A DNA stretch of 58,078 bases from an uncultured Candidatus Saccharibacteria bacterium (GCA_964617735.1 CAZTXT010000001.1:78260-136337), one strand, 5' to 3'; shown: positions 9,646-28,360, counted from the stretch's first letter. Notes: generated from the sequence alone by a model not told the origin. Numbers and translations are program-made.

Positions 9646-9668
9646 GCGCAGTCTAACCATCAATCATT

Positions 9669-10475
9669 ATGAATTCAGCTGAATATTCTTCCTCCGAAAG
9701 ACGACAATTGCTCGATCGTTTTTATACCCTGCGGCGCAATCTTTCAGCCCCGCACCATAAGGCGTTCACTATGGCCCAGAGCCAGATGATGGTGAAAGAA
9801 AGAGATGCGGTATTAGATGAATACGCCAAGCGCTTACCTCTCGTCCCGTTGAGCCGTTGCCCGTTTTGCGCCGAGCCGCTCGAATATTCAATAGATGTGC
9901 AGGGACTTGATGGTCCTTGGTGGTTTAATGGGCCGATGGCGGAATTCCCGCAACCCAAATGCTGCACGCACTTTCGGGTTCTGCTCGGCGCGATGGATTT
10001 TCATTCGAATCGTCCGCTTGAGACCGAGCTGATACCCGAAGTGCTGCCCGGTCCTGGGGTTCCTTTTGTCGTGCCCCGACTCCTAGAAATACCGACGATG
10101 AAAACGGTGGTCTCCAGTTTCACTATACCTCCGAACTATATGGCTTATGCGATCGCCTATTTTAGCGAAAATCCCCTTCACGGCGCTTTATTGCACCAGC
10201 CTTGGGGACGTCAGGCCTACCAAGTCCTTGACGAGAATGGAAAATATGAGGGTTGGACTGCGGCCAACGATAAGATTGATTTTGACCTCGGGCCTTGGAT
10301 TGATAAAGGTTTGGTTCTCTGGGTCAACCCGGGCGATTCGACGTTAACTCTGCAGAATCGCCCGCCCTGCCCTTACGTCAATCTTCCCGGCGTTCGGGCA
10401 CCACAGAAAATCGTCCGCGGAGAACTTGAAACCATGCCCCTCCCTACCGGCAAACGGCTTCAACCTTTCGAATAG
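9669..10475 (+). CDS. Hypothetical protein with Cys motifs, just beyond the last CRISPR repeat
   Basis: 268-aa ORF with SRCPFC, GLDGPWW and KCCTH; not a typical CPR core gene. Confidence 0.75.
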   Translation: MNSAEYSSSERRQLLDRFYTLRRNLSAPHHKAFTMAQSQMMVKERDAVLDEYAKRLPLVPLSRCPFCAEPLEYSIDVQGLDGPWWFNGPMAEFPQPKCCTHFRVLLGAMDFHSNRPLETELIPEVLPGPGVPFVVPRLLEIPTMKTVVSSFTIPPNYMAYAIAYFSENPLHGALLHQPWGRQAYQVLDENGKYEGWTAANDKIDFDLGPWIDKGLVLWVNPGDSTLTLQNRPPCPYVNLPGVRAPQKIVRGELETMPLPTGKRLQPFE

Positions 10476-10496
10476 CAGAGCCATATAGGCATTCGG

Positions 10497-10531
10497 GTTG
10501 CACACCATCCTCTTCGCAACGTTACTGCAAG
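10497..10531 (-). repeat. Repeat R6 (leader-distal, degenerate, 35 bp)
   Basis: GTTGCACACCATCCTCTTCGCAACGT--TACTGCAAG: 4 substitutions and a 2-bp deletion versus consensus. Confidence 0.85.
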
Positions 10532-10633
10532 GCCTTCCTGCAGGCAATGCATTTTATAAGTGATTCAGAGAAGCTTCAGATGAAGAGCAGGCCTGTTCGG
10601 AAATCATCCGAACAACGATTCAAGCAATGTTAT

Positions 10634-10664
10634 GAAAGAAAAAGGCCAGCTCCTGCTGGCCTTT
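10634..10664 (-). terminator. Intrinsic terminator in spacer 5
   Basis: AAAGGCCAGC-TCCT-GCTGGCCTTT stem, T-rich tail on the - strand, downstream of ORF 10690-10899. Confidence 0.7.
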
Positions 10665-10689
10665 CGTGATTGCAGCACTCCAAACTTAC

Positions 10690-10899
10690 CTAAATACCAA
10701 CTTTAGCAAGCTCTTGGGGATTGCGGAGCGTGAGCAGCCGTGCTCGCGAAATATGACCCCTCGCCAACTTTTGAAGTGCTCGAAGTTCAGACTTCTCTAC
10801 AGCGGAAAGCACTGAAGACATCTTTTTGCGTAAAAGGGTTACTCGACGGGCATTCTGCCGTTTCCTGAACTTTGATGTACTACTAGACAAGGTTTGCAT
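10690..10899 (-). CDS. Small basic hypothetical protein (spacer 5 cargo)
   Basis: 69 aa, GAAAGGA SD upstream, terminator downstream. Confidence 0.6.
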   Translation of the reverse strand: MQTLSSSTSKFRKRQNARRVTLLRKKMSSVLSAVEKSELRALQKLARGHISRARLLTLRNPQELAKVGI

Positions 10900-11061
10900 A
10901 TATAATCCTTTCTAATTCAGATGATAAGGATTATTGAATAATTTGCAATGGAGTTATTGGAAGCAAATTCAGAGCGCATGTCAGAGAGGACACTTGCACG
11001 GGGCTTCAAACATAAGCAAGGCATTTCTTAACCTTAAAGAATAGGATTTCGAGGGAAAGTG

Positions 11062-11098
11062 GTTGCACACCATTCTTTTCGCGACGTAGTACTGTAAG
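11062..11098 (-). repeat. Repeat R5 (4 mismatches)
   Basis: GTTGCACACCATTCTTTTCGCGACGTAGTACTGTAAG. Confidence 0.92.
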
Positions 11099-11132
11099 CT
11101 TTTACCGTGCGGTCGCGAGGTAGTGGGCCTTG

Positions 11133-11429
11133 TTAAGAGGGCTTGATAATTCGAGCGCGACATGCGCCAAGAAGCGCCCCCAAGAGAAAGAAGATCGGCA
11201 CTCCAAGAGAAATTTCCAACCAATATGGGGGATAAAAATCAAGAATCTCATTAAGTGCCCAGAAAGGTATCCAGGGAAATGCCAAAGGAATGCACTCAAA
11301 TCCTAAACCGGTGTATCCGGGAACAAAAATGTGGTGCATGCAAGATTCGTATAGAGCGCCAGATATCAGCGAGCTAATTCCCGCAATTGCTCCTCCGCGC
11401 AGCCAAGGTGGCCAAAACTTCCAGTGCAT
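11133..11429 (-). CDS. Small membrane protein (spacer 4 cargo)
   Basis: MHWKFWPPWLRGG..., 98 aa, TM segments; start placed just after a TG-n-TATGAT extended -10. Confidence 0.65.
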   Translation of the reverse strand: MHWKFWPPWLRGGAIAGISSLISGALYESCMHHIFVPGYTGLGFECIPLAFPWIPFWALNEILDFYPPYWLEISLGVPIFFLLGALLGACRARIIKPS

Positions 11430-11435
11430 AAGGTT

Positions 11436-11465
11436 ATCATACCAAAGGTTGTTTATCATTGTCGA
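11436..11465 (-). promoter_or_regulatory. Putative sigma70 promoter inside spacer 4
   Basis: TCGACA-N18-TATGAT with TG extension, 6 nt before the ATG. Confidence 0.45.
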
Positions 11466-11521
11466 CAAGAGTGACTGAAAAGCCGATGCACTAAGCATCG
11501 GCTGTGTGGCTCACGACGCTA

Positions 11522-11558
11522 GTTGCACAATATCCTTTTCGCGACGTAGTACTGCAAG
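11522..11558 (-). repeat. Repeat R4 (consensus)
   Basis: Exact 37-bp match. Confidence 0.97.
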
Positions 11559-12061
11559 TTTACTCATATCTGGTTCTTTCTTTTGGGCGAGCGTGCACGT
11601 CGCCAGGCCATGTTTTTGGAGGTGGAGCCACACAACATCAATGCGGTGCGACTGAACCACGGTTGTGCAATAGTTGTAGCCGCGGACGGTCGTGCCAGGT
11701 TGGCTGAGCGCGTGGCGCGAATACAACCACCGAAGATAAAGATGGAAACGGGAAGAATCTGATCCGACTGAATGCTACAGAGACGGACAAGCAAAAACCC
11801 CAGAACACGGTAAGTTGCTCTGGGGAAGCACCTCGCCAGAAACCAAGTTCTGGGGCTGGGTGAGCGTTGGGGAAATCGGAAGCCCGACGCCATCCAGGAT
11901 TAAGTATAATTGTGGATTCTCGATCGTCAAACCTGGTAGTCTGGGAGTCCTGCGGGTTGAGGACGTTTTTATAAAAATGCATTTTTTGTGAAACAGAAAC
12001 GCCCACTTTGCCGTCTTTGTGAGTAGAGTTTCCGATAAAGTGCGGGAATTCTTCAACATGC

Positions 12062-12736
12062 ATGAAGCGAGAAATCGGCTGGGCGCTCGTGCGCCTTGCA
12101 AAAATGCGCCTCTCCCCGGACGCGTGGCATCACTGGGAGCAAGTGCGCAAAGACTGGGCAATGGTTGCGCGTTTTGTGAGCCATTGCCAAAAGGTAACAA
12201 CGGGATGCCACTGCAATCTCTGGGAGGAGGGCTGCCACTGCGAAGCGGAGGCTGAAGTCCTCGTCCAAGAGACCTTGGTTCGAATAGACACAAAGTTGTT
12301 GCCAAAATGCGAGACGATGGAAGTGTGGAGAATAGGTAATTACGTGGAAGAGATTGCGCGGAACGTGGCTTATGGTGAATTCGCGAAAGCTTCAGCGCAG
12401 AAACGTGGAGGTCGTAAAGGGAAAGAGGGGCGACACCAGCTTCCAGAGCGGATTTCGTATCCCGATGCGGAAGAAAGCGAAGACCAGCGGTTGAATCTTC
12501 CTGTAGTTGCCCTCCCTACGCAGGTTCAAACTGCTTCACTCAAAGAATTCGACCAAAAAGTGCGTCGGTTATATTACGATGGCGTAATCGATGACAGAGA
12601 GCTTGAGGTTTTGAGAGACCTCATGGAAGAGCGTACGCAACGCGAGATTCGAGATCGAAGGCGTATGAGCTTGAGCCGAGTTAACGCATGCTGTAAGAAG
12701 CTGCGGGAGATTCTGCGAATGCATTGGAGTTGGTAA
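12062..12736 (+). CDS. ECF-type RNA polymerase sigma factor-like protein
   Basis: Region 2-like AEVLVQETLVRI, KRGG motif, C-terminal region 4 HTH (RTQREIRDRRRMSLSRVN). Confidence 0.65.
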   Translation: MKREIGWALVRLAKMRLSPDAWHHWEQVRKDWAMVARFVSHCQKVTTGCHCNLWEEGCHCEAEAEVLVQETLVRIDTKLLPKCETMEVWRIGNYVEEIARNVAYGEFAKASAQKRGGRKGKEGRHQLPERISYPDAEESEDQRLNLPVVALPTQVQTASLKEFDQKVRRLYYDGVIDDRELEVLRDLMEERTQREIRDRRRMSLSRVNACCKKLREILRMHWSW

Positions 12737-12755
12737 TTCTCTTCAGCCAGAAAAT

Positions 12756-12784
12756 GCCGCCTGGTTCGAAAGGAACCGGGCGGC
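12756..12784. terminator. 12-bp stem-loop between the sigma and anti-sigma-like genes
   Basis: GCCGCCTGGTTC-GAAAG-GAACCGGGCGGC. Confidence 0.45.
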
Positions 12785-12799
12785 TTACTAATACTTGAA

Positions 12800-13090
12800 A
12801 TGAGCAACTTGAACGCGAAGTCAATAGGCACGGGAACAGTTTGTATTTCGGAAGATGATCTTCTGCTTTTCGTCAGCGAGAACTTCGCTGAAACAAAAAT
12901 GGGCGCGTATGTAATTGCGGAGCACTTAAACCAGTGCCGGAAATGCCGGGACCGGGAGGGTCGGATTCGGGCGCGTTTGCAACATTTATTAACAACCGTC
13001 GCACAGATGCCGAACTGGAAGTGGCTGGATAGCGAGCATTCCGTTTACCGAGAAAAAGGCTGGCTAAAACTCAAGAGGAAGGGCGCGTAA
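12800..13090 (+). CDS. Putative zinc-binding anti-sigma (zf-HC2/ZAS) domain protein
   Basis: EHLNQCRKCR matches HxxxCxxC; directly downstream of the ECF-like gene. Confidence 0.55.
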   Translation: MSNLNAKSIGTGTVCISEDDLLLFVSENFAETKMGAYVIAEHLNQCRKCRDREGRIRARLQHLLTTVAQMPNWKWLDSEHSVYREKGWLKLKRKGA

Positions 13091-13177
13091 AGGAAAGTGC
13101 GGAGCTGGAAGAAAGGGAGCCTGCTCCGGTTTCTCAGGGTGAGTCCGATTGAATTGCTTTCGTAGGACTTGTTCGGC

Positions 13178-13432
13178 TCACTTGACCCGCTTGGCTGCGA
13201 GTTCTGCCTCGTGTAGGACGGTTGAAAGTTCCAGGCGGAGCGCGCCCGAGATCCGAAGCAATGTTTCGAGCGATGGGTTCCGTTGCTCACTTTCGATAAG
13301 GCTGATCATGCCTTGGGAAAGACCAGACATTTCTGCCAGGCGGGTCATGGAAATGTTCTGCTCTTTCCGCTTTTCACGCAATATGCGGGCGACGTGCGAA
13401 CAAACGGATTCGCGATAGCCGATTTTTGTCAC
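13178..13432 (-). CDS. XRE-family HTH transcriptional regulator
   Basis: LREKRKEQNISMTRLAEMSGLSQGMISLIESEQRNPSLETL. Confidence 0.9.
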   Translation of the reverse strand: MTKIGYRESVCSHVARILREKRKEQNISMTRLAEMSGLSQGMISLIESEQRNPSLETLLRISGALRLELSTVLHEAELAAKRVK

Positions 13433-13464
13433 AGTTAAGGGCTACCAAAAAAATCCATTGACAA

Positions 13465-13489
13465 CGGACATTACTATAGTAATAGTCCG
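13465..13489. promoter_or_regulatory. Palindromic operator in the divergent promoter region
   Basis: CGGAC-ATTACTATAGTAAT-A-GTCCG with a perfect 14-bp core palindrome, 1 nt after TTGACA (13458-13463). Confidence 0.6.
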
Positions 13490-13491
13490 AT

Positions 13492-13734
13492 ATGTTCATT
13501 CGGCGTCTTGGCCCGGATCCGCACGCAAACGGGAATCGAACCTTTGCGGTGAAAGGGTGCCCTGATATTTTCGAGCTGGATGGTGGTGATTTCGCGGTTA
13601 TCGGCACGGACATTACTGCGGTGGCCGAGAGCAAATTGCCTCCTTCTGCCAGTTGCGGGGCTGACGAAAGGGTTGTTCGAATACCCCGGAAGACCCTTGT
13701 ATTAGCGAAACCAGACATACCCGACAAGATATGA
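13492..13734 (+). CDS. Small hypothetical protein (CPDIFEL...GDFAVIG motif)
   Basis: 80-aa ORF divergent from the XRE gene; well-formed protein-like sequence. Confidence 0.7.
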   Translation: MFIRRLGPDPHANGNRTFAVKGCPDIFELDGGDFAVIGTDITAVAESKLPPSASCGADERVVRIPRKTLVLAKPDIPDKI

Positions 13735-13767
13735 GCCGCCACTTGCTTTTCGTGTTAAAATGGGCCG

Positions 13768-14223
13768 GTGGAAAGCTGGCTTGCAAAAAACTGGTTCGAA
13801 GCCGTGAGCACAATCGGGATTGTTGCCAGTCTGTTATTTACCGCGCACTCGCTGCGCGCGGAGACAAACTCACGAAGGATCAGCAATTTGATTACGTTAA
13901 CGCACAATCATCGCGAAATTTGGAGCGAATTTTTCAAAAATCCGAAATTGGAGCGGATCCTTACCGGGCAGCCAACGATTTTGGAACGCCCGATCACAAT
14001 CGAAGAAGAAATATTGGTGAATCTGGTCATTCAGCAATTGCAGAGCGTGTTTTACGCCATATCGGACAAGCTAGTACTCAAGCCGGAACAATTGGGCACA
14101 GATGTAAGGGATTTTTTGTCGCTGCCGATCCCCCGCGCAGTTTGGGAGAAGAACAAAACTCTGCAAAATCGCGATTTCGTTTCATTCGTGGCGGAGCAGC
14201 TTCAACCTCGTCGCAGTGGTTGA
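13768..14223 (+). CDS. Hypothetical protein with N-terminal TM (DUF6082-like, tentative)
   Basis: 151 aa, one TM then a helical domain; GTG start. Confidence 0.65.
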   Translation: MESWLAKNWFEAVSTIGIVASLLFTAHSLRAETNSRRISNLITLTHNHREIWSEFFKNPKLERILTGQPTILERPITIEEEILVNLVIQQLQSVFYAISDKLVLKPEQLGTDVRDFLSLPIPRAVWEKNKTLQNRDFVSFVAEQLQPRRSG

Positions 14224-14293
14224 AGCGTGCAAGAAAGGGCTTTTGACTGACTAAAACCATACGGCACAGGGGAGGCAACATATCAGGTGTCAT

Positions 14294-14515
14294 TCACAAA
14301 TCGGCAACAAGATCGGACACTTTAACGTGTAACGCATCGGAGATGCGGAGTAAGGCATGAAGGCTGATCCATTTTTCGCCTCGCTCGATTTTGCCAAGAT
14401 AGACCGGGTGGAGGTTCGCCTGTTCTGCAAGGTTTTCCTGGGTAAGTTTTGCGTGTTTCCGATGCTTCCGAATTGCTTCACCGAGATTTCGTCTTCGTTG
14501 TTGAATGCGCGACAC
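14294..14515 (-). CDS. XRE-family HTH regulator
   Basis: IRKHRKHAKLTQENLAEQANLHPVYLGKIERGEKWISL. Confidence 0.9.
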   Translation of the reverse strand: MSRIQQRRRNLGEAIRKHRKHAKLTQENLAEQANLHPVYLGKIERGEKWISLHALLRISDALHVKVSDLVADL

Positions 14516-14706
14516 AGTCGTTTAGGAGAGCAAGAAGCGCAGGCGGAAAACACACCCCATAGGGGTTCATTTTGTTCTTGCATTTGGGAAGGGTTTTGTC
14601 AGTATCGGCATAGCGTGGGCGATGGTTCAGTCTATTGGCGGCGCTCCACTGGCTGAGTTTCCATCCTTCCGGGAGTTGCATTTAGAAGTCAGCAGAGAAC
14701 TTAATC

Positions 14707-15957
14707 ATGAAAACGAGTAGACCAATTGGGACTTCAGCGGGTCTTTTGATTCTGATAGTAGTGTGGTTTGCGCCGGGAGGACTTGCTCAAGTGAACAGTG
14801 GGAGTGACGGGCGTGATGGCCCACTCGATCCCGGAATATGCCCAGGCGGGGCGTGTAGTGTCGTCATCGACATGCACGATCATCCAGATGGGGTTTATCA
14901 ATATACTGCCGTTAATATGGCTCCTGGAGTTACTGTGACGTTTGTGCCAAATTCGAATAATACTCCGGTTGTTTGGTTGGTGCAGAGCAACTGTGTAATT
15001 AGCGGAGGCGCAACCGTCATTGTGACGGCACAAGGTGGGAGCGGTGGGTCAGGTGGGGCAGGAGGGCCCGGTGGATTTCGCGGAGGCAATGGAGGAACGC
15101 TTAGCGCTGGAGGAATGGGGCCTGGCGGGGGATTGGCGGGCGGCTACGTTGGCGGCACTGGATCATATGGAATGTTTGGCACGAATGCCGCGGGGACTAC
15201 TAATGGAGATGGAGCTATCTATGGAAATCAATTTCTGCTGCCCCTGGTTGGCGGTTCCGGTGGGGCTGGCTCAATGGGAAGTTGTAGCACCATCGCCTTT
15301 GGCGGCGGGGGCGGCGGGGGAGCGCTATTGATTGTCGCGTCCGGAAGAATCCTGCTGGATGGGAGTATCGAGGCATGCGGTGGTCCAGCATGCGGAGGAT
15401 TTTACGCCTGTCCTGGAGGATTCAGCACGAATATCGCGGGAGGTGATGGCAGCGGGGGGGCGGTGAGGCTAGTTGCCTCACAAATTCTTGGCAGCGGCAG
15501 CATCTATACCGGTCGCTCAGGAAGCTATTGCGGTGAGGCCAGTTTTGGAGGTTTAGGAAGAGTCAGACTTGACTCCCCGGATTTAAACTTCGGTGGAATA
15601 ATTACGGCTGTAGCAAGTCAAGGATTCCAGCCGATAATTATTCCTTCACAAGGGACAGGTGTTCAACTAGCGATTGCAAGCATTGGCGGAGTACCGGTTT
15701 CTGCGTCTCCAACTGGACAACTTGCAACTCCTGACGCTGTGCTCTCCAGTCAGCAGAGCAACCCTATTCCCATCGTTGTGAATTGCTCGAATATTCCGTT
15801 AAACACGCAGATCACGGTGGTAGTCAGGCCAGCTACTGGCCCGGCTGTAAGCGCGACAGGACTCAACAACACTGGGACGCTCTTGGCGAGCACGGCTACC
15901 GTTTTGCTTAATATGCCGCGAGGCGGGGGAATCATTTACGCAACTGCAGCAAACTAA
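14707..15957 (+). CDS. Secreted glycine-rich protein
   Basis: Signal peptide, SGSDGRDG, long G-rich tracts, C-terminal beta-sandwich-like region. Confidence 0.8.
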   Translation: MKTSRPIGTSAGLLILIVVWFAPGGLAQVNSGSDGRDGPLDPGICPGGACSVVIDMHDHPDGVYQYTAVNMAPGVTVTFVPNSNNTPVVWLVQSNCVISGGATVIVTAQGGSGGSGGAGGPGGFRGGNGGTLSAGGMGPGGGLAGGYVGGTGSYGMFGTNAAGTTNGDGAIYGNQFLLPLVGGSGGAGSMGSCSTIAFGGGGGGGALLIVASGRILLDGSIEACGGPACGGFYACPGGFSTNIAGGDGSGGAVRLVASQILGSGSIYTGRSGSYCGEASFGGLGRVRLDSPDLNFGGIITAVASQGFQPIIIPSQGTGVQLAIASIGGVPVSASPTGQLATPDAVLSSQQSNPIPIVVNCSNIPLNTQITVVVRPATGPAVSATGLNNTGTLLASTATVLLNMPRGGGIIYATAAN

Positions 15958-15965
15958 AACGCCGG

Positions 15966-17951
15966 ATGAGGTCTTCGACGCAACTTGGAATAGTTGCAAC
16001 CTTGCTCTTGAAATCGCTCTCGTTATGCGCAGACGAGGTTACTACAAACGCCATGTCGCCTATCGTGAGCTACCAATACCTTAATGCCGTGGATGAGCAG
16101 GGAACAACGCTGGCAAGTCCGATAGTTAGTTTCCAATTCCTGAGCTCATTGGGCGAGGCGGCAACGACAGTATTTAGCCGCATTGTGGGCTACCAGTATT
16201 TGGATTGGGCAGGCAATGACGCGTTACAACTGGAGAGCAGTGATCAGGTGAGCTATTACTATCAATTTCTAAACGTCCCGCCTCTCGTTATTATCCCTAC
16301 GAATCGCACGGCAACTGCCACAGAGGTCAGTCCTTCAGTTGTTCTCCCTGGCCCAGATCCTTGGCAACTCAAGACGTTCACAAATGGCATGCTTAGGACT
16401 AACGTGGCGCCTGATTCAAACTGGATGAGCGTTGTGCTGACCCATGGCTGGAACAGCAGCCCGGAGGCATGGGCAACGAACATGGCACAATTGATTTCTG
16501 CAAACGCTACAACATCGGCGAATATTTTAATTTGGGACTGGACGAGCGCTTCGCAGTCCACGCCATGCCTCTCATTGCAGGCGGATTTCGTTGGAGCGGC
16601 GCGACTGACACCTGACCAAGGATTCGCGTTAGCGATGGCATTGCGCTCGAAATTAGGAACAAATTATTCGCACCAGATTCATTTTATCGGGCACAGCCTT
16701 GGCGCTCTGGTAAACGGATTCGCCGCAATCTACCTCCATCACCACGGATTCGCTCCTACTAACACTCAAATAACAATGTTTGATGAAGCAGAAGTAGCAA
16801 CAGATCTGAGTTGCCCGGAACTCTTGAATGCAGTCCTGTTCAACCAGTGGAATCCTCTTTCGCCGAAGCCATACTATTGTCATCCCCTGCCGCGGCAATT
16901 CGCCTGGGCAGACAACTACATCACTGCGTTCGGGCTTCTGCATCCTGATGCGCACAACGTCATCCTTACGAATGGTTTCCCGGGCAATGCTGCGAACCTG
17001 ATAAACTTGGGTCAGAAGTTAGCTAATTTTCACAGTTACCCTTGCGATTGGTACGCCGAGACGGTTAGCAGTAACAATTCGGCGATGGGGCATCAGTGGT
17101 CGTTTGAGCAGGGCGGATTTTCGGGAGGGCGCGACACGAACACCGTCTTCCGTCAATCGTTTAATGGGTCGCTTTGGAATCTTGCGGAGTTGGATTATGC
17201 TGCTGGCAGCAATTACTTGGCCGGGCGATTTGAGAAGTATCGCGACGCCGTGAAGTATGCTGTTACTAATAAGTCTCCGAGCGCTATCGCCGCAAATGGA
17301 ATTGTGTTCGGCTTCGTGCTTCTTGGGCTTACATTTGACGGCTTCGTTTTGTACTTGCAAACCAGCGCTGCCAGTCCTCAAGTTTCTGAATTCCCCCGCC
17401 AGGGTTCCCACGGGCACGACGGTGGTGCGGGCGGGAACGGGAGCACGGGCGCATGTGCCTGGTTGAGGCTACCGATTCCTGCCGACGGAGTTTCCATCTC
17501 CTTTGATTTCAAGGTTGACGGCGATTGGCAGGATGATTCGCTGGCGGCGGCACTAAATGGAACAAACTTACTTCTACTTGCCGCCAGCCAAGTCGAGACC
17601 AACATTGTGCTCAATAGCGGCCTCATTGATATAAGGTCATATGCTGGCCAAACGAACGAACTCTTTGTCGGAATCGTTGGAGGCACCTCCACGAATGCTC
17701 TGCTGACCGTGGGGAACGTTGCGATCTACACAGCCGCAGTGCCGTCATTGCACGGGGAAGTAAGCGGAAGGGATTTCAACATTTCGTGGCCGCTCACGGC
17801 ACAGAACTTCAACTTGGAATCTACAACCAATCTGGAGCTGATAAATTCTTGGACGGCAGTCACCAACACCCCGGCCATAGTCAATTTCCAGAACATAGTC
17901 ACGAATGACGCTTCCACGGATAGTAGGTTTTACCGTCTAAGAAAGTATTAA
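15966..17951 (+). CDS. Secreted alpha/beta-hydrolase (lipase-like) with C-terminal Verrucomicrobia-style appendage
   Basis: VLTHGW, nucleophile elbow GHSLG; C-terminus ISWP...FNLESTTNL...W...VTN...RFYRLRK. Confidence 0.75.
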   Translation: MRSSTQLGIVATLLLKSLSLCADEVTTNAMSPIVSYQYLNAVDEQGTTLASPIVSFQFLSSLGEAATTVFSRIVGYQYLDWAGNDALQLESSDQVSYYYQFLNVPPLVIIPTNRTATATEVSPSVVLPGPDPWQLKTFTNGMLRTNVAPDSNWMSVVLTHGWNSSPEAWATNMAQLISANATTSANILIWDWTSASQSTPCLSLQADFVGAARLTPDQGFALAMALRSKLGTNYSHQIHFIGHSLGALVNGFAAIYLHHHGFAPTNTQITMFDEAEVATDLSCPELLNAVLFNQWNPLSPKPYYCHPLPRQFAWADNYITAFGLLHPDAHNVILTNGFPGNAANLINLGQKLANFHSYPCDWYAETVSSNNSAMGHQWSFEQGGFSGGRDTNTVFRQSFNGSLWNLAELDYAAGSNYLAGRFEKYRDAVKYAVTNKSPSAIAANGIVFGFVLLGLTFDGFVLYLQTSAASPQVSEFPRQGSHGHDGGAGGNGSTGACAWLRLPIPADGVSISFDFKVDGDWQDDSLAAALNGTNLLLLAASQVETNIVLNSGLIDIRSYAGQTNELFVGIVGGTSTNALLTVGNVAIYTAAVPSLHGEVSGRDFNISWPLTAQNFNLESTTNLELINSWTAVTNTPAIVNFQNIVTNDASTDSRFYRLRKY

Positions 17952-17981
17952 CTCACCGCAGGGGCTCAGCGGCAACCGCCG

Positions 17982-18392
17982 CTAGTCGTGGAAGATGGTA
18001 GCCAAAAACGGTATGGCGACCAAAGAGACAAAGAGATCAAGCACGACGGCTAGAAAGATGCCGAAGGCAATTAGTTTTAGGATTATTTGGAACTGGGCTC
18101 GCGGCGGCTTCTGGTTGATTGTGGCTTCTGTGGATGGTTGATGTGAAGTGCTTGGCCTGGATCTTGTCTGATCTTGGGTTGGACGCAGGAATAGGAGAAT
18201 CAGTATAGAGCCGACAATTAGAATACCTGATAGAAGGCCACCCCGTATCATAACCTGCATTTCTGCCATGATATCGTCGGCAGGTTGCGGCATAAAGACG
18301 ACATATGACAGTATTATAGCGCCAACGAAGGAGCCTAACGTGATGGCAACGTAAGAAATGTAGCGAATAATGTGAATCAAGGCGTTTTTCAT
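17982..18392 (-). CDS. Three-TM hypothetical membrane protein
   Basis: 136-aa ORF with hydrophobic segments. Confidence 0.6.
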   Translation of the reverse strand: MKNALIHIIRYISYVAITLGSFVGAIILSYVVFMPQPADDIMAEMQVMIRGGLLSGILIVGSILILLFLRPTQDQTRSRPSTSHQPSTEATINQKPPRAQFQIILKLIAFGIFLAVVLDLFVSLVAIPFLATIFHD

Positions 18393-18529
18393 ATGTCTTG
18401 TTGTCTTGTTGCGCAGGGGTGACCATTATTGTACCCGAAATTAGTTTCATAAAAAAGCCGACGTTGTGGACGTCGGCTGTGTTGGCTCAAAGCATCCGTT
18501 GTAGGAGGCCTGTGAGCAGCAAAATAATA

Positions 18530-19171
18530 TTAGGCAAGTCGAGCACGTGCCGTGCGACAGTGGTGCTCGTCCAGTTCAATGAGGACGAACTTGCGATGAG
18601 CAGCCCTGGCGGCAACACCAGTGGTGCCCGAACCTGCAAACGGATCTAGCACAATATCGTCTGGTTGCGAGAATGCTTCGATCAGCGGCAAAAGACAAAT
18701 CACCGGTTTTTCCATTGGGTGAAACTCATTTCCTGTGTATTCCCAATCGAAAACGTCATCTGGCGGATAGGCCGGCCTCAGCGGTTTGCCTTTGGCCAGG
18801 AGGAATGCTACTTCGTGATAGCTGCGAGTGTAGCCCTCGCGTGAACAATAGTCTTTCACCCAGATCAGATGACTGACCGGACGAAACCCCACCTGTTTCC
18901 AAACGTGCATAAACCGATCAATCCAAGGCCAGCCATAAAAGCTGGCGCAAAATCGGTCGGGCTTAAGCACGCGATGAATCTCGTGAAATGCCGGCCGCAA
19001 CCAATGATTGTTGTCATCGTTGGCGCAACGCCGACCGTCGCGAGCAACATACCTGGTTAGGTAAGGTGGATCGGTGAGCACTAAGTCAACACTTGCGTCG
19101 GGCATCGTGCGCAGAACGGAAATGCAATCGCCGTGAATGACCTGGTTAAGGAAGCTATCGATGGTTTGCAT
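18530..19171 (-). CDS. Orphan DNA methyltransferase (N6-A/N4-C, beta class)
   Basis: Motif IV TDPPY precedes motif I DPFAGSGTT; HPMEKP. Confidence 0.92.
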   Translation of the reverse strand: MQTIDSFLNQVIHGDCISVLRTMPDASVDLVLTDPPYLTRYVARDGRRCANDDNNHWLRPAFHEIHRVLKPDRFCASFYGWPWIDRFMHVWKQVGFRPVSHLIWVKDYCSREGYTRSYHEVAFLLAKGKPLRPAYPPDDVFDWEYTGNEFHPMEKPVICLLPLIEAFSQPDDIVLDPFAGSGTTGVAARAAHRKFVLIELDEHHCRTARARLA

Positions 19172-19185
19172 GTTAAGCCTCCTTT

Positions 19186-19473
19186 TCAGTAATCCTCAGG
19201 CAACAGCACTGTTGTGACAGACCGATCAGCTTCGGTGATAAGCCAGAACTTCGTGCCGTTCTGTGCGTGATATACGGAAAGCAAACGGAAGCCTTCTTTG
19301 AGTGAAAGGTCATTTTCGCTTCTGTCATCTTCACTCACGTCGCCCCAATCGCCAGCCTGGTGCCGTTGAATGGCGACCAGGATGTCTTGGTTTGATACCT
19401 TTCCAAGCGCATTTGGGGTGGCCACAATCCTGCCAAGCCGTAACCGAGCAATGGGTGGTTTGTGAGCGCTCAT
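19186..19473 (-). CDS. Plasmid/ICE-associated conserved small protein
   Basis: LGRIVATPNAL...RHQAGDWG...RLLSVY...WLITEADRSVTTVLLPEDY, a family I recall from mobile-element leading regions. Confidence 0.75.
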   Translation of the reverse strand: MSAHKPPIARLRLGRIVATPNALGKVSNQDILVAIQRHQAGDWGDVSEDDRSENDLSLKEGFRLLSVYHAQNGTKFWLITEADRSVTTVLLPEDY

Positions 19474-19799
19474 AAGCCGAAGTCCTCCATTGCCGAGGCA
19501 ATGGCGTCTTCGTCATCGCCAAGGATTTCCACCAAACCTGCTTTTAACGCTGCCTTGTCGAGGTCGGGTCTGGCCCCCTTGGGACAAGCAGGGCAGCGGA
19601 TAACATCGAGAATTGAGGCACCGAACTCATAACCGGCCGCTTTGAACTGCTCGCGATACCGCCCCGAAAGCCGTTTGGCGACGGGTAGGGAGCGCCAAGC
19701 TTCGGCTTCAGCATGGTCGACGGTCGTTTCGAAAATGGCATCGTGCCGGAGGTGATAGACATCCCACGGCTCATTGCATGATGAACAATGAACATCCAT
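19470..19799 (-). CDS. Hypothetical protein with CxxC pairs
   Basis: MDVHCSSCNEPWD...CPAC; overlaps the next gene by 4 nt. Confidence 0.7.
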   Translation of the reverse strand: MDVHCSSCNEPWDVYHLRHDAIFETTVDHAEAEAWRSLPVAKRLSGRYREQFKAAGYEFGASILDVIRCPACPKGARPDLDKAALKAGLVEILGDDEDAIASAMEDFGL

Positions 19800-19814
19800 A
19801 CGCGTGCTCCTTTC

Positions 19815-20490
19815 TCAGTTGTAGAAGTAACCAAGCTGTCGGAGCGAGCAATGGTTGGGATTGCCAATTATGACATGATCGAGGACCTCAATTTTAAGAA
19901 GTTGGCCCGCGCGAATGAGGTCTCGCGTGACTTTGATGTCTGCCTCTGATGGTTGCGGCTCACCGCTAGGATGATTGTGCATGAGCACAACGGCCGCTGC
20001 CGCCGTGATTATTGCGACCCGGAACACCTCCCGTGGATGGACGAGGATTGTATCGAGCGTGCCGATGCTCACCATCTGATGCCCTTTCACACGCCGGCGT
20101 GTGTTAAGCATGAGGACAGCGAAACATTCGCAGTCCGGCATGAAATACGGATTTGTGGCGATATGGGACCGCCAATAATCGGCAGCGTTCTCTGGAGTTT
20201 CGCACAAATGCATTCCCTCCGGCATGGGGCATTCGCGCAATGTGATTACTTTGTATTCCTTGGCCGGCGGGATCGGTTTGGGATCTGCCGGGGCCTCCTG
20301 CAATTCGAGAGTTGAGGCGGGAACGATTGCATACTTATCCCTGGGGTCATTTCGGGATCGGTGCGTTGGCGCACCGCAAGGATGTTGCCAGCAACGGCGC
20401 CCGGCATTCCAATGGAAGCCAAGATCTTTCAGTTTATCGCGGATTTCCTTGAGTGGCGCGACCGAAAATTCGAGCCACACCCATTTGCCG
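19815..20490 (-). CDS. RadC/JAB-domain protein, 5'-truncated at the repeat
   Basis: VHPREVF, HNHPSG...PSEADI, LDHVII; the frame runs into repeat R3 with no native ATG. Confidence 0.85.
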
Positions 20491-20527
20491 GTTGCACAAT
20501 ATCCTTTTCGCGACGTAGTACTGCAAG
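20491..20527 (-). repeat. Repeat R3 (consensus)
   Basis: Exact 37-bp match. Confidence 0.97.
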
Positions 20528-20591
20528 AACAATCACCGATTTGCTGCAATCTCGATAACGGATAGGAAAGGGCCTGGCAAAAGTTGCAAGC

Positions 20592-20621
20592 AAAAAGGCA
20601 ACGAGAAGAACGCGTTGCCTT
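20592..20621 (-). terminator. Intrinsic terminator in spacer 2
   Basis: AAGGCAACG/CGTTGCCTT 9-bp stem with a T run on the - strand. Confidence 0.55.
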
Positions 20622-20651
20622 CGTGTGAGTCCTCTGCGAACCCTATCTGCA

Positions 20652-20828
20652 TCAGGAAATGCCGAACTTCGCAATCGTAAGCCGGAAGTTTCGTGAGGGC
20701 TTTACCCTGGCATGATTCCGAAGGGATAGATTCAAGGATTCCGAGATCCTGCGGACCTTTTCTGCCATACTTTGGACCTCTCGAATCTCTGACAGAGTCA
20801 AGGATTGTTTTGAGTGTAGTTTATTCAT
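20652..20828 (-). CDS. Small basic hypothetical protein (spacer 2 cargo)
   Basis: MNKLHSKQSLTLSEIREVQ..., 58 aa, followed by a terminator. Confidence 0.35.
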   Translation of the reverse strand: MNKLHSKQSLTLSEIREVQSMAEKVRRISESLNLSLRNHARVKPSRNFRLTIAKFGIS

Positions 20829-21197
20829 AATGGTAAGCCAACAAAGCAAGTGAGAGGCCGTCTCTAAAGGGTTGCCGTACGCAATTATAGACATTTGAAT
20901 GAACCGTGTTCTCCAAAGAGGAACTTGGACAGGCCTTCTGCATCCTAGACATTCCTCCTTTGCTTTGCTGATGGTACCAAATTAGTCCGATTCTGTAAAT
21001 CGGCTTTGGGGTATTGTGCCCATCACAGAAAGCAGGCACACTTTGTCCCCGCCTGGTACAGCTTTGAGACAAACAGACTTGGAACCGCTCAAAGAAGACC
21101 CCGAATCCTTAATTGGCGGAAGAAGGAGTAAAGGGCTTCCACAGCCGCCGCTGCGCCAACTTAGACGTGATAGGTATTGCGTGGTTCCGAACTGACA

Positions 21198-21234
21198 GTT
21201 GCACAATATCCTTTTCGCGACGTAGTACTGCAAG
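21198..21234 (-). repeat. Repeat R2 (consensus)
   Basis: Exact 37-bp match. Confidence 0.97.
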
Positions 21235-21335
21235 GTAAGGGGCCTTTCGGGGGCTGTTATGTTGACGATCAGATCAAATTTGCCGTCACCGTCCCACGGG
21301 CGGTTGACACGCCTGAAAATCTGAAGAGGACCATA

Positions 21336-21629
21336 ATGGTTGAGAGCTTGAAGGCTCAATTGGAATCCTTGCGTGAATCACGACGCGAGAGGGATGAAGC
21401 CGCCGAGATTATCAGGAATGCTTTTAACGAGGTGAGTACCATCAACAAGGTGGCGAATGCGTTTAATACTATGCATCACCAAATGAAAAAGGAGAAAGAA
21501 GAGGCGGCACGGAAAGCAGCTCAAGAAGAACGATTGACCCCTGAGCAAACAGAGGAATTTGTAAAGGAGGCCCTGCAACAAGTTGATAAGCTCTTCCTCG
21601 CCTTGACGGACCGATACTTGCCTAAATAG
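21336..21629 (+). CDS. Coiled-coil hypothetical protein (spacer 1 cargo)
   Basis: GAGGA SD then ATG 21336; 97 aa, charged and helical. Confidence 0.65.
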   Translation: MVESLKAQLESLRESRRERDEAAEIIRNAFNEVSTINKVANAFNTMHHQMKKEKEEAARKAAQEERLTPEQTEEFVKEALQQVDKLFLALTDRYLPK

Positions 21630-21657
21630 AAAAAAGGGGTGCCAGTGGGCACCCCTT
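21630..21657. terminator. Terminator between convergent spacer 1 ORFs
   Basis: AAGGGGTGCC-AGTG-GGCACCCCTT with an adjacent A run. Confidence 0.7.
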
Positions 21658-21691
21658 GTCGCGCGACTGAGCCAAGAATTCCGACCCGCAC

Positions 21692-22132
21692 TTATAACCT
21701 CATTGTGGGCGACGGCGACCCACCGCAGAGCTGTTCGAATTCCTTAGCGGCTTCGTCACCTACCTCCTGTTCGGATGGCGGCTCAACGTAAATCTCGGCG
21801 CAAAGCCGTTGGAAGGTTTCTTGGTAAGACCTGAAGAACTCGGGGTGGCGCCGCATACCGTTTCGCAGCAGATCCTTGATGAATCGGCAACAGGCCTGTT
21901 GCTGCTGATGGTGAAGTTCGCAAATCTTACTTACATGCGAAAAACTCACATGACTCTCCAACTGACGGCGGGCTTCTTCCCTGCAGACAGAGGAGACGAG
22001 CTCACCAAATTGACGCCGTTCGTCCAGCGACAAACGAGGGAGCGTGAGTAAGAAGAGGCGCTTCCACGCAACTTCTCCCTGACTGTCATTTGAGTTCGGG
22101 GTCAGTAGCGCTAATGATTGGGAACTAAGCAT
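21692..22132 (-). CDS. Hypothetical helical protein (spacer 1 cargo)
   Basis: GAAAGGA SD then ATG 22132 (MLSSQ...); 146 aa. Confidence 0.65.
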   Translation of the reverse strand: MLSSQSLALLTPNSNDSQGEVAWKRLFLLTLPRLSLDERRQFGELVSSVCREEARRQLESHVSFSHVSKICELHHQQQQACCRFIKDLLRNGMRRHPEFFRSYQETFQRLCAEIYVEPPSEQEVGDEAAKEFEQLCGGSPSPTMRL

Positions 22133-22250
22133 AGTTGAATTCCTTTCGTTGGCTGATTGGCAGTGCAGAACTCCGCGTACACCATGCACGTGGCGTTCTG
22201 TCTGCCAACCGAGGTTTCTCTGCTTAGTACCGCCCCCTCCATCTTTCGCC

Positions 22251-22278
22251 ATTATATCACGCCTATAATCTATGTCAA
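22251..22278 (-). promoter_or_regulatory. Consensus sigma70 promoter inside spacer 1
   Basis: TTGACA-N16-TATAAT on the - strand. Confidence 0.75.
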
Positions 22279-22524
22279 GAGTATTACAGCCTGACTAAAA
22301 AGCAGAGATTTGCTTGCTGACAGTCTGGGCAGAAGGCTAACTGTCCGGTCTGCGGCCATGCACGACATTCATTCGCGGATGGAGTTTCGCGTCAGCCTGT
22401 TCGTCCTCGCCGGTGAGAACCAACAATGCGATTGGGTAGAAGCGTTCATCATCAAAAACGGAGTGTGCGTCGCGCGGACCGGATTACCATCGTTCTTAAT
22501 ATGACGCATAAGCACGCTGATCGA

Positions 22525-22561
22525 GTTGCACAATATCCTTTTCGCGACGTAGTACTGCAAG
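22525..22561 (-). repeat. Repeat R1 (leader-proximal, consensus)
   Basis: Exact 37-bp match, 38 bp from the cas2 stop. Confidence 0.97.
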
Positions 22562-22599
22562 AGCCAGCAATTTAAGGATTGCCTTCTGAATTTACTTGA
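22562..22599 (-). promoter_or_regulatory. Putative minimal CRISPR leader (38 bp)
   Basis: The only sequence between the cas2 stop and the first repeat. Confidence 0.5.
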
Positions 22600-22881
22600 C
22601 TAAACGATCTCGTATGGTTTTCTATTGCGTGTAATGGCATAGGAAACGTCGTGCCGTTTGAAACAATCTGCGCACAAGACAACTACATGGTACTTATCAT
22701 TGCGACCGTTGAAAATATTTTTCATTTTATTTTCAAATTCAAGTCGTTCGTTTGTACTTATTGGCCCCGAAAATAAATTGCGATGAAGCGAAATAAGTCC
22801 ATAATCAGCACACACAGTCCGCGCCCGTTCTGCCTTTCGAGCATTCTTTGCAAACCATAGTACTATAGAACCCGAATTCAT
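22600..22881 (-). CDS. cas2: Cas2-like protein (divergent)
   Basis: 93 aa directly after cas1; DYGL...LFSG...D...VVLCADCFK aligns by eye with Cas2; the N-terminal YDI motif is replaced by WFA. Confidence 0.75.
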   Translation of the reverse strand: MNSGSIVLWFAKNARKAERARTVCADYGLISLHRNLFSGPISTNERLEFENKMKNIFNGRNDKYHVVVLCADCFKRHDVSYAITRNRKPYEIV

Positions 22882-22892
22882 CCTATTGATAT

Positions 22893-23894
22893 TTATAAGA
22901 GCACAGAGAAATCTATCGACAAGTAGGAGGTCTGATTTCCCAGAAAACATCGACTCAAAACACGGTTCTGCTCTAAAATGACATCTCTTAGCGTTCGGCG
23001 TTTCCCCTTCCAAAATATCCTCTGGTTCAGACGATTTAACACACCTTCAACTACCTTGGCCTTCCCTTCTGGAGAAAGACGGTATTCATCTTTGCTTATT
23101 TTTTCAAAATCACTACGCTTGCCGAGTTTTTTCTCTATGAAGAGCGGAATGATCGCGGAATCCACGATTGGAACTCGAAATTCCTCAACAAGGTCAAGCA
23201 CCAAAGCCGGTTTACCGTAGCGGTCGGAGTGGTATAAACCCAGATAGGGATCGAGTCCGACATAGAGGCACGCGCGTTCGACTTCATTATAGAGAATTCC
23301 GTATCCGTAGTTGAGTGCGCTGTTGAATTTGTCACGTCCTTGTGGAACACGACCAGGAAATTTATGCAGACGTTTCAAACAGTCCCAGTATTTATCTGCT
23401 ATAAAACCCTCAGTCCCCAGTAGCTGGTTACGGGCTTTTTCTCCACCTGGGATTCCCCAGATATTCTGTAGTAAAGTCTCGGCTTGCACGATTTCTTTTC
23501 CAAAATCCTTGCCGTATTTTGCCGAGAGGAATTTAAGGTATGTGATCTGATTGCGACATTTTCCATAAACAAATTGTTTTGCCAACTCGAATGATCGAAT
23601 CGGATCACTAGATACGACAAGTTGACCTCGACGCATTGTTGCTAACCCCTTCGAATCGCTCGAGAAAATTCTTCCAACAGGTTTTCCGAATGACCCGAGA
23701 TAAACAATGTCTACTTCATGCTCGATAGCGAGCCGGACGGCATGCGTAGAAATAGAAGAGGGTCGCAGGATTACAATTTTATTCAGACGCCGGATGGGAT
23801 ATTCCTTGCGCTTTTTCGTTTTCGGAAATCGCAGAGCGATACGTTCACCAGTCGATCCTATAAAGGTGCCGTATGTATCAATGAGTAGGTCCAT
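22893..23894 (-). CDS. cas1: CRISPR-associated integrase Cas1
   Basis: LLGTEG, NSALNYGYGILY, GLDPYLGLYH, LVLDLVEEFR; catalytic E/H/E present. Confidence 0.96.
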   Translation of the reverse strand: MDLLIDTYGTFIGSTGERIALRFPKTKKRKEYPIRRLNKIVILRPSSISTHAVRLAIEHEVDIVYLGSFGKPVGRIFSSDSKGLATMRRGQLVVSSDPIRSFELAKQFVYGKCRNQITYLKFLSAKYGKDFGKEIVQAETLLQNIWGIPGGEKARNQLLGTEGFIADKYWDCLKRLHKFPGRVPQGRDKFNSALNYGYGILYNEVERACLYVGLDPYLGLYHSDRYGKPALVLDLVEEFRVPIVDSAIIPLFIEKKLGKRSDFEKISKDEYRLSPEGKAKVVEGVLNRLNQRIFWKGKRRTLRDVILEQNRVLSRCFLGNQTSYLSIDFSVLL

Positions 23895-23924
23895 AAGAAT
23901 TTCTCTTAAACCTATAACAGGCCA

Positions 23925-23952
23925 ATATTAACACAGATAAGAATAATGTCAA
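23925..23952 (-). promoter_or_regulatory. Putative cas1-cas2 promoter
   Basis: TTGACA-N16-TAATAT with TG extension, 30 nt upstream of cas1. Confidence 0.55.
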
Positions 23953-23989
23953 CATACGGCTTCCCAGCAAATCACGCTAGTATGGAGCC

Positions 23990-28111: not shown

Positions 28112-28184
28112 TCCGCCCACCAGGGATCGAACCTGGGACCTTCTCCTTAAAAGGGAGCTGCTCTACCAGCTGAGCTATGGGCGG
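28112..28184 (-). tRNA. tRNA-Lys (anticodon TTT)
   Basis: CCGCCCA acceptor, loop CTTTTAA, GGTTCGATCCC. Confidence 0.93.
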
Positions 28185-28360
28185 GTATTTAATTTTCCTA
28201 GTGCTACCAACCGCTGTTGTGACGTCGAGCCATCGACCTGCCAGAACAGCTATGGCGGATATTTAGTTTTCTCACTGCTACCAAGTACTGTTATGGTGTT
28301 GAGCCATCGACCTGCCAGAACAGCTATGGGCGGGTATTTAATTTTCTCGGCGCTATCAAA
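28173..28360. repeat. Tandem repeat, about 2.5 units of 74-75 bp, each containing the tRNA-Lys 5' end
   Basis: Units start at 28173, 28248 and 28322 with AGCTATGG(G)CGG.TATTTA.TTTTC; GAGCCATCGACCTGCCAGAAC is shared. Confidence 0.85.

Follow-up and report, generated by a model that had tools for sequence, protein, structure and literature searches.

A RadC-family gene apparently cut in its N-terminal module at a repeat of a cas1-cas2 array with kilobase-sized inserts

The window, a 58,078-nt stretch of DNA from an uncultured Candidatus Saccharibacteria bacterium (GCA_964617735.1, CAZTXT010000001.1:78260-136337), contains a 14.3-kb island made up of cas1, a cas2-like gene, six copies of a 37-nt direct repeat (GTTGCACAATATCCTTTTCGCGACGTAGTACTGCAAG) that alternate with five inserts, and an additional ORF, o268 (Table 1). 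The island sits between ruvA and a Mur ligase gene. These two genes lie close together (gaps of ~0-470 bp) in five of five genomes of the same genus, and neither o268 nor cas1 is present between them in any of the five; the 14.3-kb block is thus specific to the studied genome. The cas1 product aligns, over residues 1-313, to a solved Cas1 structure (4n06); the EG, NYGY, H.D and DL.E.FR blocks are conserved in this alignment, the catalytic blocks are kept, and the gene is, as far as its sequence tells, intact. Four of the repeats are exact (chance expectation, 0) and two are degenerate, the decay being polarised: the degenerate copies lie at the end far from cas2. No further copy of the repeat occurs in the 763-kb, three-contig genome.

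Table 1. Features of the island and of its R4 junction, listed by position in the window.
Feature	Coordinates	Strand	Length	Remarks
Island	9646..23989	.	14.3 kb	o268, array, cas2 and cas1; between ruvA and the Mur ligase gene
o268	9669-10475		268 aa	no Pfam match
Repeat R1	10497..10531	-		degenerate, 2-nt deletion; trailer end
Insert S5	10532..11061	.	530 bp
Repeat R2	11062..11098	-		degenerate, 33 of 37 bases identical
Insert S4	11099..11521	.	423 bp
Repeat R3	11522..11558	-		exact copy
Insert S3	11559..20490	.	8932 bp	foreign; resembles a Verrucomicrobiota conjugative element
DNA methyltransferase (N6/N4)	18530..19171	-		PF01555, E=5.5e-32, profile positions 1-219 of 221
o95	19186..19473	-		full length compared with homologs
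o109	19470..19799	-		full length; 109/109 residues aligned, 54-78% identity, Verrucomicrobiota loci
Read-through ORF	19815-20549	-	244 aa	TTG start in spacer 2
RadC-family gene	19815..20489	-	224 codons retained	5'-truncated by homology; JAB motif HNHPSGEPQPSEAD intact
Junction base	20490	-	1 nt	C; probably third base of the donor Val25 codon
Repeat R4	20491..20527	-		exact copy; CSTTSRKGYCA(T) in the frame of the ORF
Insert S2	20528..21197	.	670 bp	source of TTG 20549 and of the first 7 codons of the read-through ORF
Repeat R5	21198..21234	-		exact copy
Insert S1	21235..22524	.	1290 bp	between R6 and R5
Repeat R6	22525..22561	-	37 nt	exact copy; adjoins cas2
Gap	22562..22599	-	38 bp	cas2 stop to first repeat, a very short leader; from coordinates
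cas2-like gene	22600..22881	-	93 aa, from MNSGS	PF09827, 22.3 bits (cut-off 23.8)
cas1	22893..23894	-	333 aa	PF01867, E=9e-67

What kind of array is this? CRISPR arrays are recognized by near-identical direct repeats of 23-55 nt, a range into which the 37-nt repeat falls, and by short spacers of nearly uniform length (~26-72 bp); here all five spacers are long and the shortest measures 423 bp, so the spacings describe a cas1-cas2-repeat array with kilobase-sized “spacers.” On neither strand does the repeat fold better than shuffled sequences do (z = -0.22 and -0.10). A Pfam scan of the ORFs in the island returns only Cas1, the Cas2-like protein, RadC, the methyltransferase and a lipase-like protein; among the ORFs scanned there is neither a tyrosine recombinase nor any recombinase other than Cas1. 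A Cas12f/TnpB effector was not found either: PF07282 is absent genome-wide, and the genes that flank the island are housekeeping genes. The ends of the inserts carry no terminal inverted or direct repeats, the end-to-end alignment scores of all five being at or below the 95th percentile of shuffles.

Only one junction of the array in the window, that between S3 and R4, clearly cuts a recognisable gene. On the minus strand, translation from 20699 to 19815 reads ...LQQIGDCSCSTTSRKGYCAT|GKWVWLEFSVAPLKEIRDKLKDLGFHWNAGRRCWQHPCG..., with no stop before a complete RadC-like JAB domain (PF04002, E=8e-39; residues 117-240, profile positions 2-120 of 121), in which the H-x-H-P...S-x-x-D motif of JAB/MPN+ proteins is present; R4 encodes residues 9-20 of this ORF. 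This agrees with the first-pass annotation, which had read GKWVW directly after the repeat and on into RadC. A search of 5.8 billion proteins yields thousands of relatives, the best 119 of which were used for comparison; they are 68-77% identical, and most have 245-258 aa, compared with the 224 aa that remain here. Homology with over 110 RadC-family proteins begins at Gly21 (base 20489), 0-1 nt from the repeat edge, while the full-length homologs continue upstream for another 21-33 residues with a conserved motif, TLxLLxRLKxEMPEIWxQAxVV; the copy in the window has no native start, as the annotation had also claimed. At least 21 residues precede GKW in 113 of the 119 homologs, and the 22-residue motif is near-invariant (L-19 and P-10 in 109/109, W-7 in 104/109, VV in 101-108 of 109). 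In a BLASTP comparison with the homolog P0005, residues from 20-21 to 244 of the ORF align with residues from 25-26 to 248; nothing in P0005 matches the first 19 residues. The missing N-terminal piece is not encoded elsewhere in the 763-kb genome.

The likely point of the break can be read from the DNA of homologs. In 11 of 19 homologs the coding sequence reads ...GTC|GGCAAATGG, so the lone C between R4 and GGC is probably the third base of Val25, which would put the break in codon 25 of a RadC-family gene of ~248 codons. The end of the repeat and the homolog DNA have at most 1 nt of microhomology, and no residual short spacer is left at the junction. The closest RadC match is 77-78% identical; since a near-identical donor was not found, the breakpoint rests on protein homology, not on the donor sequence. 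At the level of sequence comparison, these alignments establish both the truncation and its exact position.

Does the cut fall within a domain? The subfamily is built of an N-terminal module, a linker and the JAB domain, and the copy in the window lacks the first ~25 residues of this architecture. Because no Pfam model was found for the N-terminal part, we relied on an AlphaFold2 model of a full-length homolog, P0006, computed from 49 aligned sequences. Its overall quality is mediocre (mean pLDDT 60), with moderate block-mean values (71-81) over residues 1-62, where it places helices 2-14 and 16-19, a hairpin (22-25/28-32), a further helix (39-47) and another hairpin. Since the window copy begins at a position that corresponds to residue 26, the two N-terminal helices and one strand (22-25) of the first hairpin are lost. 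With moderate confidence, the cut is predicted to fall inside a compact N-terminal module, and the conservation of the motif, together with the P0006 model, lends moderate strength to the earlier description of the cut as mid-domain.

Where does S3 come from? Relatives of its RadC found in genomes are almost all from Verrucomicrobiota/Limisphaerales/Pedosphaera (among the best 80 of 196), and one native context is a conjugative element that encodes, ahead of o109-o95-RadC, a TrwB-like coupling protein, a relaxase, a primase and DUF6166. Four other ORFs of S3 (o109, o95, o80 and o171) have full-length homologs in RadC-bearing Verrucomicrobiota loci. Its tetranucleotide composition sets S3 apart from the host (z=3.4): no more than 3 of 145 host windows are equally distant. 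Translation signals differ too. The o109, o95 and methyltransferase genes are preceded by AAGGAG or GGAGG Shine-Dalgarno (SD) motifs, but an SD-like 4-mer is found in only 12.6% of 485 long host ORFs; several host genes (upstream of 7284, 9073, 23990, 25330 and 35895) instead have a TAnnnT box a few bases before the ATG and no SD, which suggests leaderless or near-leaderless mRNAs. This contrast between host and S3 genes is an independent marker of foreign DNA. By homology, composition and signals, S3 is a foreign piece, evidently from a Verrucomicrobiota-type conjugative element. The gene order is RadC-o109-o95 in S3 vs. o109-o95-RadC in the relatives examined; the donor was thus not a close copy of any of these.

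The layout is not confined to the studied genome. Homologs of this Cas1 are rare in sampled genomes (two weak matches, E 1e-11 to 1e-13, among 100 relatives; 2 of 400 genomes at E<=1e-60 in a sample of the class), and related loci were therefore taken from metagenome contigs. The closest Cas1 proteins, 72-75% identical, are labelled Patescibacteria or Paceibacterota. A unit of cas1, a cas2 homolog, a gap of ~30-40 bp and a related 37-nt repeat (CCTGCA...TTGTGCAAC) recurs in 14 related loci, beyond which no gene common to the related islands was seen. Repeat spacings are 1,299 and 1,519 bp in L101 (L108, a contig of another collection, has identical spacings), 4,279 bp in L103, and 7,709 bp in L111; kilobase inserts do recur beside this Cas1 clade. 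In L111, the insert starts within a gene, at about residue 72 for a protein family ~728 aa in length, which makes this a second gene cut at a repeat junction. An ORF at the edge of an L101 insert is open to that edge, has no start codon there, and carries at its end a weak match to the PEP-CTERM motif, below threshold (E=0.0028). Several related loci have a single repeat only, which is what arrays without acquisitions so far would look like.

How does the array compare with known systems? As in CRISPR adaptation loci, cas1 and, here, a cas2-like gene are followed by direct repeats, 37 nt long and nearly identical; each insert is flanked by full repeats, degenerate repeats lie far from cas, and the Cas1 is of the ordinary CRISPR type, with the Archaeoglobus fulgidus protein (4n06) as its nearest solved structure. 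Unlike in CRISPR, in which spacers are ~30-40 bp, the spacers here are non-uniform (423-8,932 bp), the inserts carry whole and broken genes, the leader is just 38 bp, and no effector was found among the flanking genes or, as Cas12f/TnpB, in the genome. The likeness to integrons is in the ordered, gene-sized inserts (several of 0.4-1.3 kb), the recurring site and the adjacent gene for the integrating enzyme. However, integron cassettes are gene-bounded, their attC sites are structured, and IntI is a tyrosine recombinase; here the site is a 37-nt direct repeat that does not fold significantly (z ~-0.2), the scanned island ORFs include no IntI, and inserts end inside genes (RadC codon 25 and, in L111, ~residue 72 of 728 aa). 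Casposons, the Cas1-solo transposons, have terminal inverted repeats and carry their own cas1, along with polB, inside the element. The array resembles them in having a Cas1-family integrase, in the kilobase size of the DNA moved and in the target duplicated on both sides, but its cas1 lies outside all inserts, terminal inverted repeats are lacking, and the contents of the inserts are unrelated to one another. The locus thus has the parts of a CRISPR adaptation module but not the short, uniform spacers, and is neither an integron nor a casposon. The cargo, too, has familiar relatives: like RadC/JAB proteins of conjugative elements and prophages (PF04002), the window copy has a complete C-terminal JAB domain (HNHPSG...SEAD), but unlike them it lacks the first ~25 residues of the N-terminal module and expression signals of its own.

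In the literature on kilobase or giant spacers and on Cas1-based gene capture, we found a single comparable case, the SiL-E1 pseudo-spacer of Sulfolobus islandicus LAL14/1: a ~2-kb piece of a conjugative plasmid with five ORFs between two perfect CRISPR repeats (PMC3718332). Its junctions contain no unaccounted bases, and an origin by double recombination was proposed (Open Biol 2013, PMC3718332). S3 is likewise a kilobase piece of a conjugative element between perfect repeats. SiL-E1, however, is a single exception in a normal array with a complete CRISPR-Cas system, whereas the present array has long spacers throughout (up to 8.9 kb) and a layout repeated across the Cas1 clade, and no effector was found. 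The paper on Roizmanbacteria CRISPR does not describe long spacers.

How, then, could a broken foreign gene come to lie flush against a repeat? The explanation that we regard as probable is that this Cas1-Cas2 lineage integrates DNA at the repeat, duplicating the repeat but not measuring the length of what it inserts, and that its substrate was a randomly broken piece of a conjugative element. The 20490/20491 junction would then be the cas-proximal boundary of an 8,932-bp foreign piece that the neighbouring Cas1-Cas2 integrase placed in a CRISPR-type repeat array; in this Patescibacteria-size lineage, the integrase would not impose the usual ~35-bp spacer length. The donor would have been a randomly broken fragment with one end within codon 25 of the ~248-codon RadC-family gene, so that the promoter, the ribosome-binding site, the start codon, the first two helices and the first strand stayed behind; integration at the repeat border, followed by duplication of the repeat, would have set a complete 37-nt repeat against the broken end. 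A complete and identical 37-nt repeat on either side of S3 argues for this course of events, and since the edge of the insert cuts RadC in codon 25, the gene would have been captured in an arbitrarily broken fragment, not as a whole. The first-pass annotation had proposed as much: its statement that inserts are not gene-bounded, unlike integron cassettes, is borne out by a boundary of S3 inside RadC, and its suggestion that Cas1 took a broken fragment is the most economical explanation of a junction with exact flanking repeats and neither a short spacer, microhomology nor terminal inverted repeats. That Cas1-Cas2 itself joined the ends is what we infer from this footprint. Canonical Cas1-Cas2 complexes measure the prespacer and insert fragments of ~35 bp; we know of no experiment in which a CRISPR-type Cas1-Cas2 integrated kilobase DNA. 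The Pfam score of the Cas2-like protein, below the cut-off, also counts against this course of events.

The main rival to capture by Cas1-Cas2 is homologous recombination. In this scenario, an incoming conjugative element recombined with two pre-existing spacers that matched it, and the spacer-repeat-spacer unit was replaced by the intervening stretch of the element; the breakpoint in RadC would be the start of an old 35-bp spacer. Such a double exchange, too, would produce perfect repeats and junctions free of unaccounted bases, as in SiL-E1 (PMC3718332), and S3 does derive from a conjugative element. Yet the scenario needs short spacers, and there are none, either here or in L101, L103 and L111; recombination would therefore have had to use up all the spacers of all these arrays. 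Some related loci have one repeat and no spacer, and a CRISPR effector that would maintain short spacers was not found by the genome-wide search for Cas12f/TnpB, all of which leaves recombination an unlikely origin for S3.

If Cas1-Cas2 delivered a headless RadC gene to the array, is the gene still used? The open frame from the TTG in spacer 2 through the repeat into RadC, described in the first-pass annotation as an in-frame fusion, is real but not special: the repeat is stop-free in all three minus-strand frames (LAVLRREKDIVQ, LQYYVAKRILCN and CSTTSRKGYCA), which makes an in-frame “fusion” automatic. Any 5'-cut gene in the orientation of RadC would look fused, and the open frame thus carries no information. 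Neither TTG 20549 nor GTG 20480, the start used in a database gene call (P0001), is preceded by an SD or by a -10-like TAnnnT box of the kind found before host ATGs. Were the ORF translated, the product would contain the fusion-type junction peptide ...GYCATGKWVWLEF; a chimeric protein, as envisaged earlier, is conceivable, but start signals that would support it are absent from both codons. A restart at the internal MPEGM, the other outcome suggested, is possible and finds no support; the first position of this motif is mostly L, not M, in the homologs.

It is improbable, in our view, that the truncated RadC is functional, whether it were translated as a fusion that begins at TTG 20549 or, internally, from M109/M113 to yield a stand-alone JAB RadC. 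Stand-alone JAB-domain RadC proteins do exist, as in the short RadC-like proteins of E. coli prophages; the 224 retained codons contain no stop or frameshift, all homolog-invariant columns are conserved, the JAB motif included, and read-through transcription is conceivable, given that the gene has the same orientation as cas1-cas2 and that no terminator-like site is predicted on the minus strand from S2 to RadC. However, intactness is equally expected after recent capture, the open frame across the repeat is automatic, the two upstream start codons lack both signals, and the GGAGG near M113 is only 2 nt from the ATG. We infer that the truncated gene is passive cargo rather than an expressed fusion protein. 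A bolder idea, which we hold to be quite unlikely, gives the stop-free repeats a purpose: transcribed from the cas side, they would let 5'-broken genes be translated, as repeat-encoded fusions or from internal starts, and the ruler-less array would be a means for a genome-reduced episymbiont to try out and domesticate conjugative-element genes of a Verrucomicrobiota neighbour or host, as well as a record of that partner. If true, RadC and the DNA methyltransferase would be the genes on trial here, and the array would be more than an archive.

Could the junction be a product of assembly? The genome comes from uncultured material and S3 resembles DNA of another phylum, so the 37-nt repeat might have misled the metagenome assembler into merging contigs of Verrucomicrobiota and of Patescibacteria. 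The foreign segment would, however, have needed the exact 37-nt repeat at both of its ends; S3 lies on a 675-kb contig of a genome assembled into three contigs and scored 99.99% complete; and kilobase spacing is seen in other assemblies, including L101 and L108, which come from different collections and agree, as well as L103 and L111. The exact repeats on both sides and the recurrence elsewhere make a chimera very unlikely. Least credible of all, and largely refuted, is the notion that RadC is not truncated because its subfamily has a natural short form that starts at or near GKWVW, with the repeat merely upstream: database entries with such starts do exist (P0090 at VGKWVW, P0098 at LEF, P0068 and P0073 at MPEIW), but P0090 begins at base 3 of its own contig, so that its short start is a contig-end artefact, and the others are on contigs of 1.0-2.0 kb, leaving no homolog, among those searched, that starts at GKWVW except in records cut at or near contig ends, whereas the upstream motif is near-invariant in the homologs, belongs to the N-terminal module in the P0006 model, and is replaced in the window by no start codon with recognisable signals.

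Four other routes to the junction were considered and rejected. A circular donor, which would have brought the missing 5' end of RadC to the other end of S3, is contradicted by the DNA upstream of the left junction, which is unrelated to the genes natively upstream of RadC, and by the genome-wide absence of the RadC N-terminal motif. Insertion of a mobile repeat into a resident RadC gene fails because no RadC N-terminus is encoded on the far side of the repeat. Joining driven by microhomology would have had at most 1 nt in common between the repeat end and the homolog DNA to work with, and transposon-like ends were not found on the insert.

A junction resolved to the nucleotide, with a perfect repeat set against a foreign segment of 8.9 kb that opens in codon 25 of a gene, is the kind of trace that would be left by a Cas1-Cas2 lineage able to insert DNA of any length with arbitrary end points. 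Arbitrary end points set the array apart both from integrons, with their gene-bounded cassettes, and from transposons, which have defined ends. This reading makes a testable prediction of a new DNA-writing activity, the integration of kilobase DNA with duplication of the repeat. It also points to horizontal transfer from mobile elements of Verrucomicrobiota to an ultra-small bacterium, and this transfer may indicate the organisms with which that bacterium lives.

Several minor observations concern the other end of S3 and the related loci. At 11559-11567 on the minus strand, ATG AGT AAA lies directly against R3, after a purine-rich tract; these three codons could open another gene that was cut at a junction. 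A 67-aa ORF open to the left edge of S3 has a sub-threshold AlkB-like match (E=0.025); it has no match in the Verrucomicrobiota loci, and a search of all proteins returned uninformative matches to giant proteins. A full-length Verrucomicrobiota-type RadC (69% identity) is encoded on a contig labelled Candidatus Taylorbacteria, a CPR lineage (L011, MHRI01000005.1). No CRISPR-type repeats lie near that gene, so it is uninformative about the array; it could reflect mis-binning or a separate transfer. In L103 (10001-16441), the cas1-cas2 unit and two repeats that enclose 4.2 kb are located in a ribosomal-protein operon, flanked by the L5 and S8 genes. L099 (cas1 at 10001) and L101 (9502) have common flanks, with TIM and PGK upstream and T2SS genes downstream, and differ in array content: one repeat and no insert in L099, three repeats and two inserts in L101. 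The difference suggests that kilobase inserts were gained or lost between related lineages.

Two features elsewhere in the window may be of separate interest. A tRNA-Lys(ttt) gene (28112-28184, minus strand) precedes ~2.4 tandem copies of an overlapping 74-nt unit (28112-28359), which may be tRNA-like pseudo-copies. The segment 44000-46800 is low in G+C (0.36-0.45 vs. ~0.51 elsewhere) and may be another foreign island.
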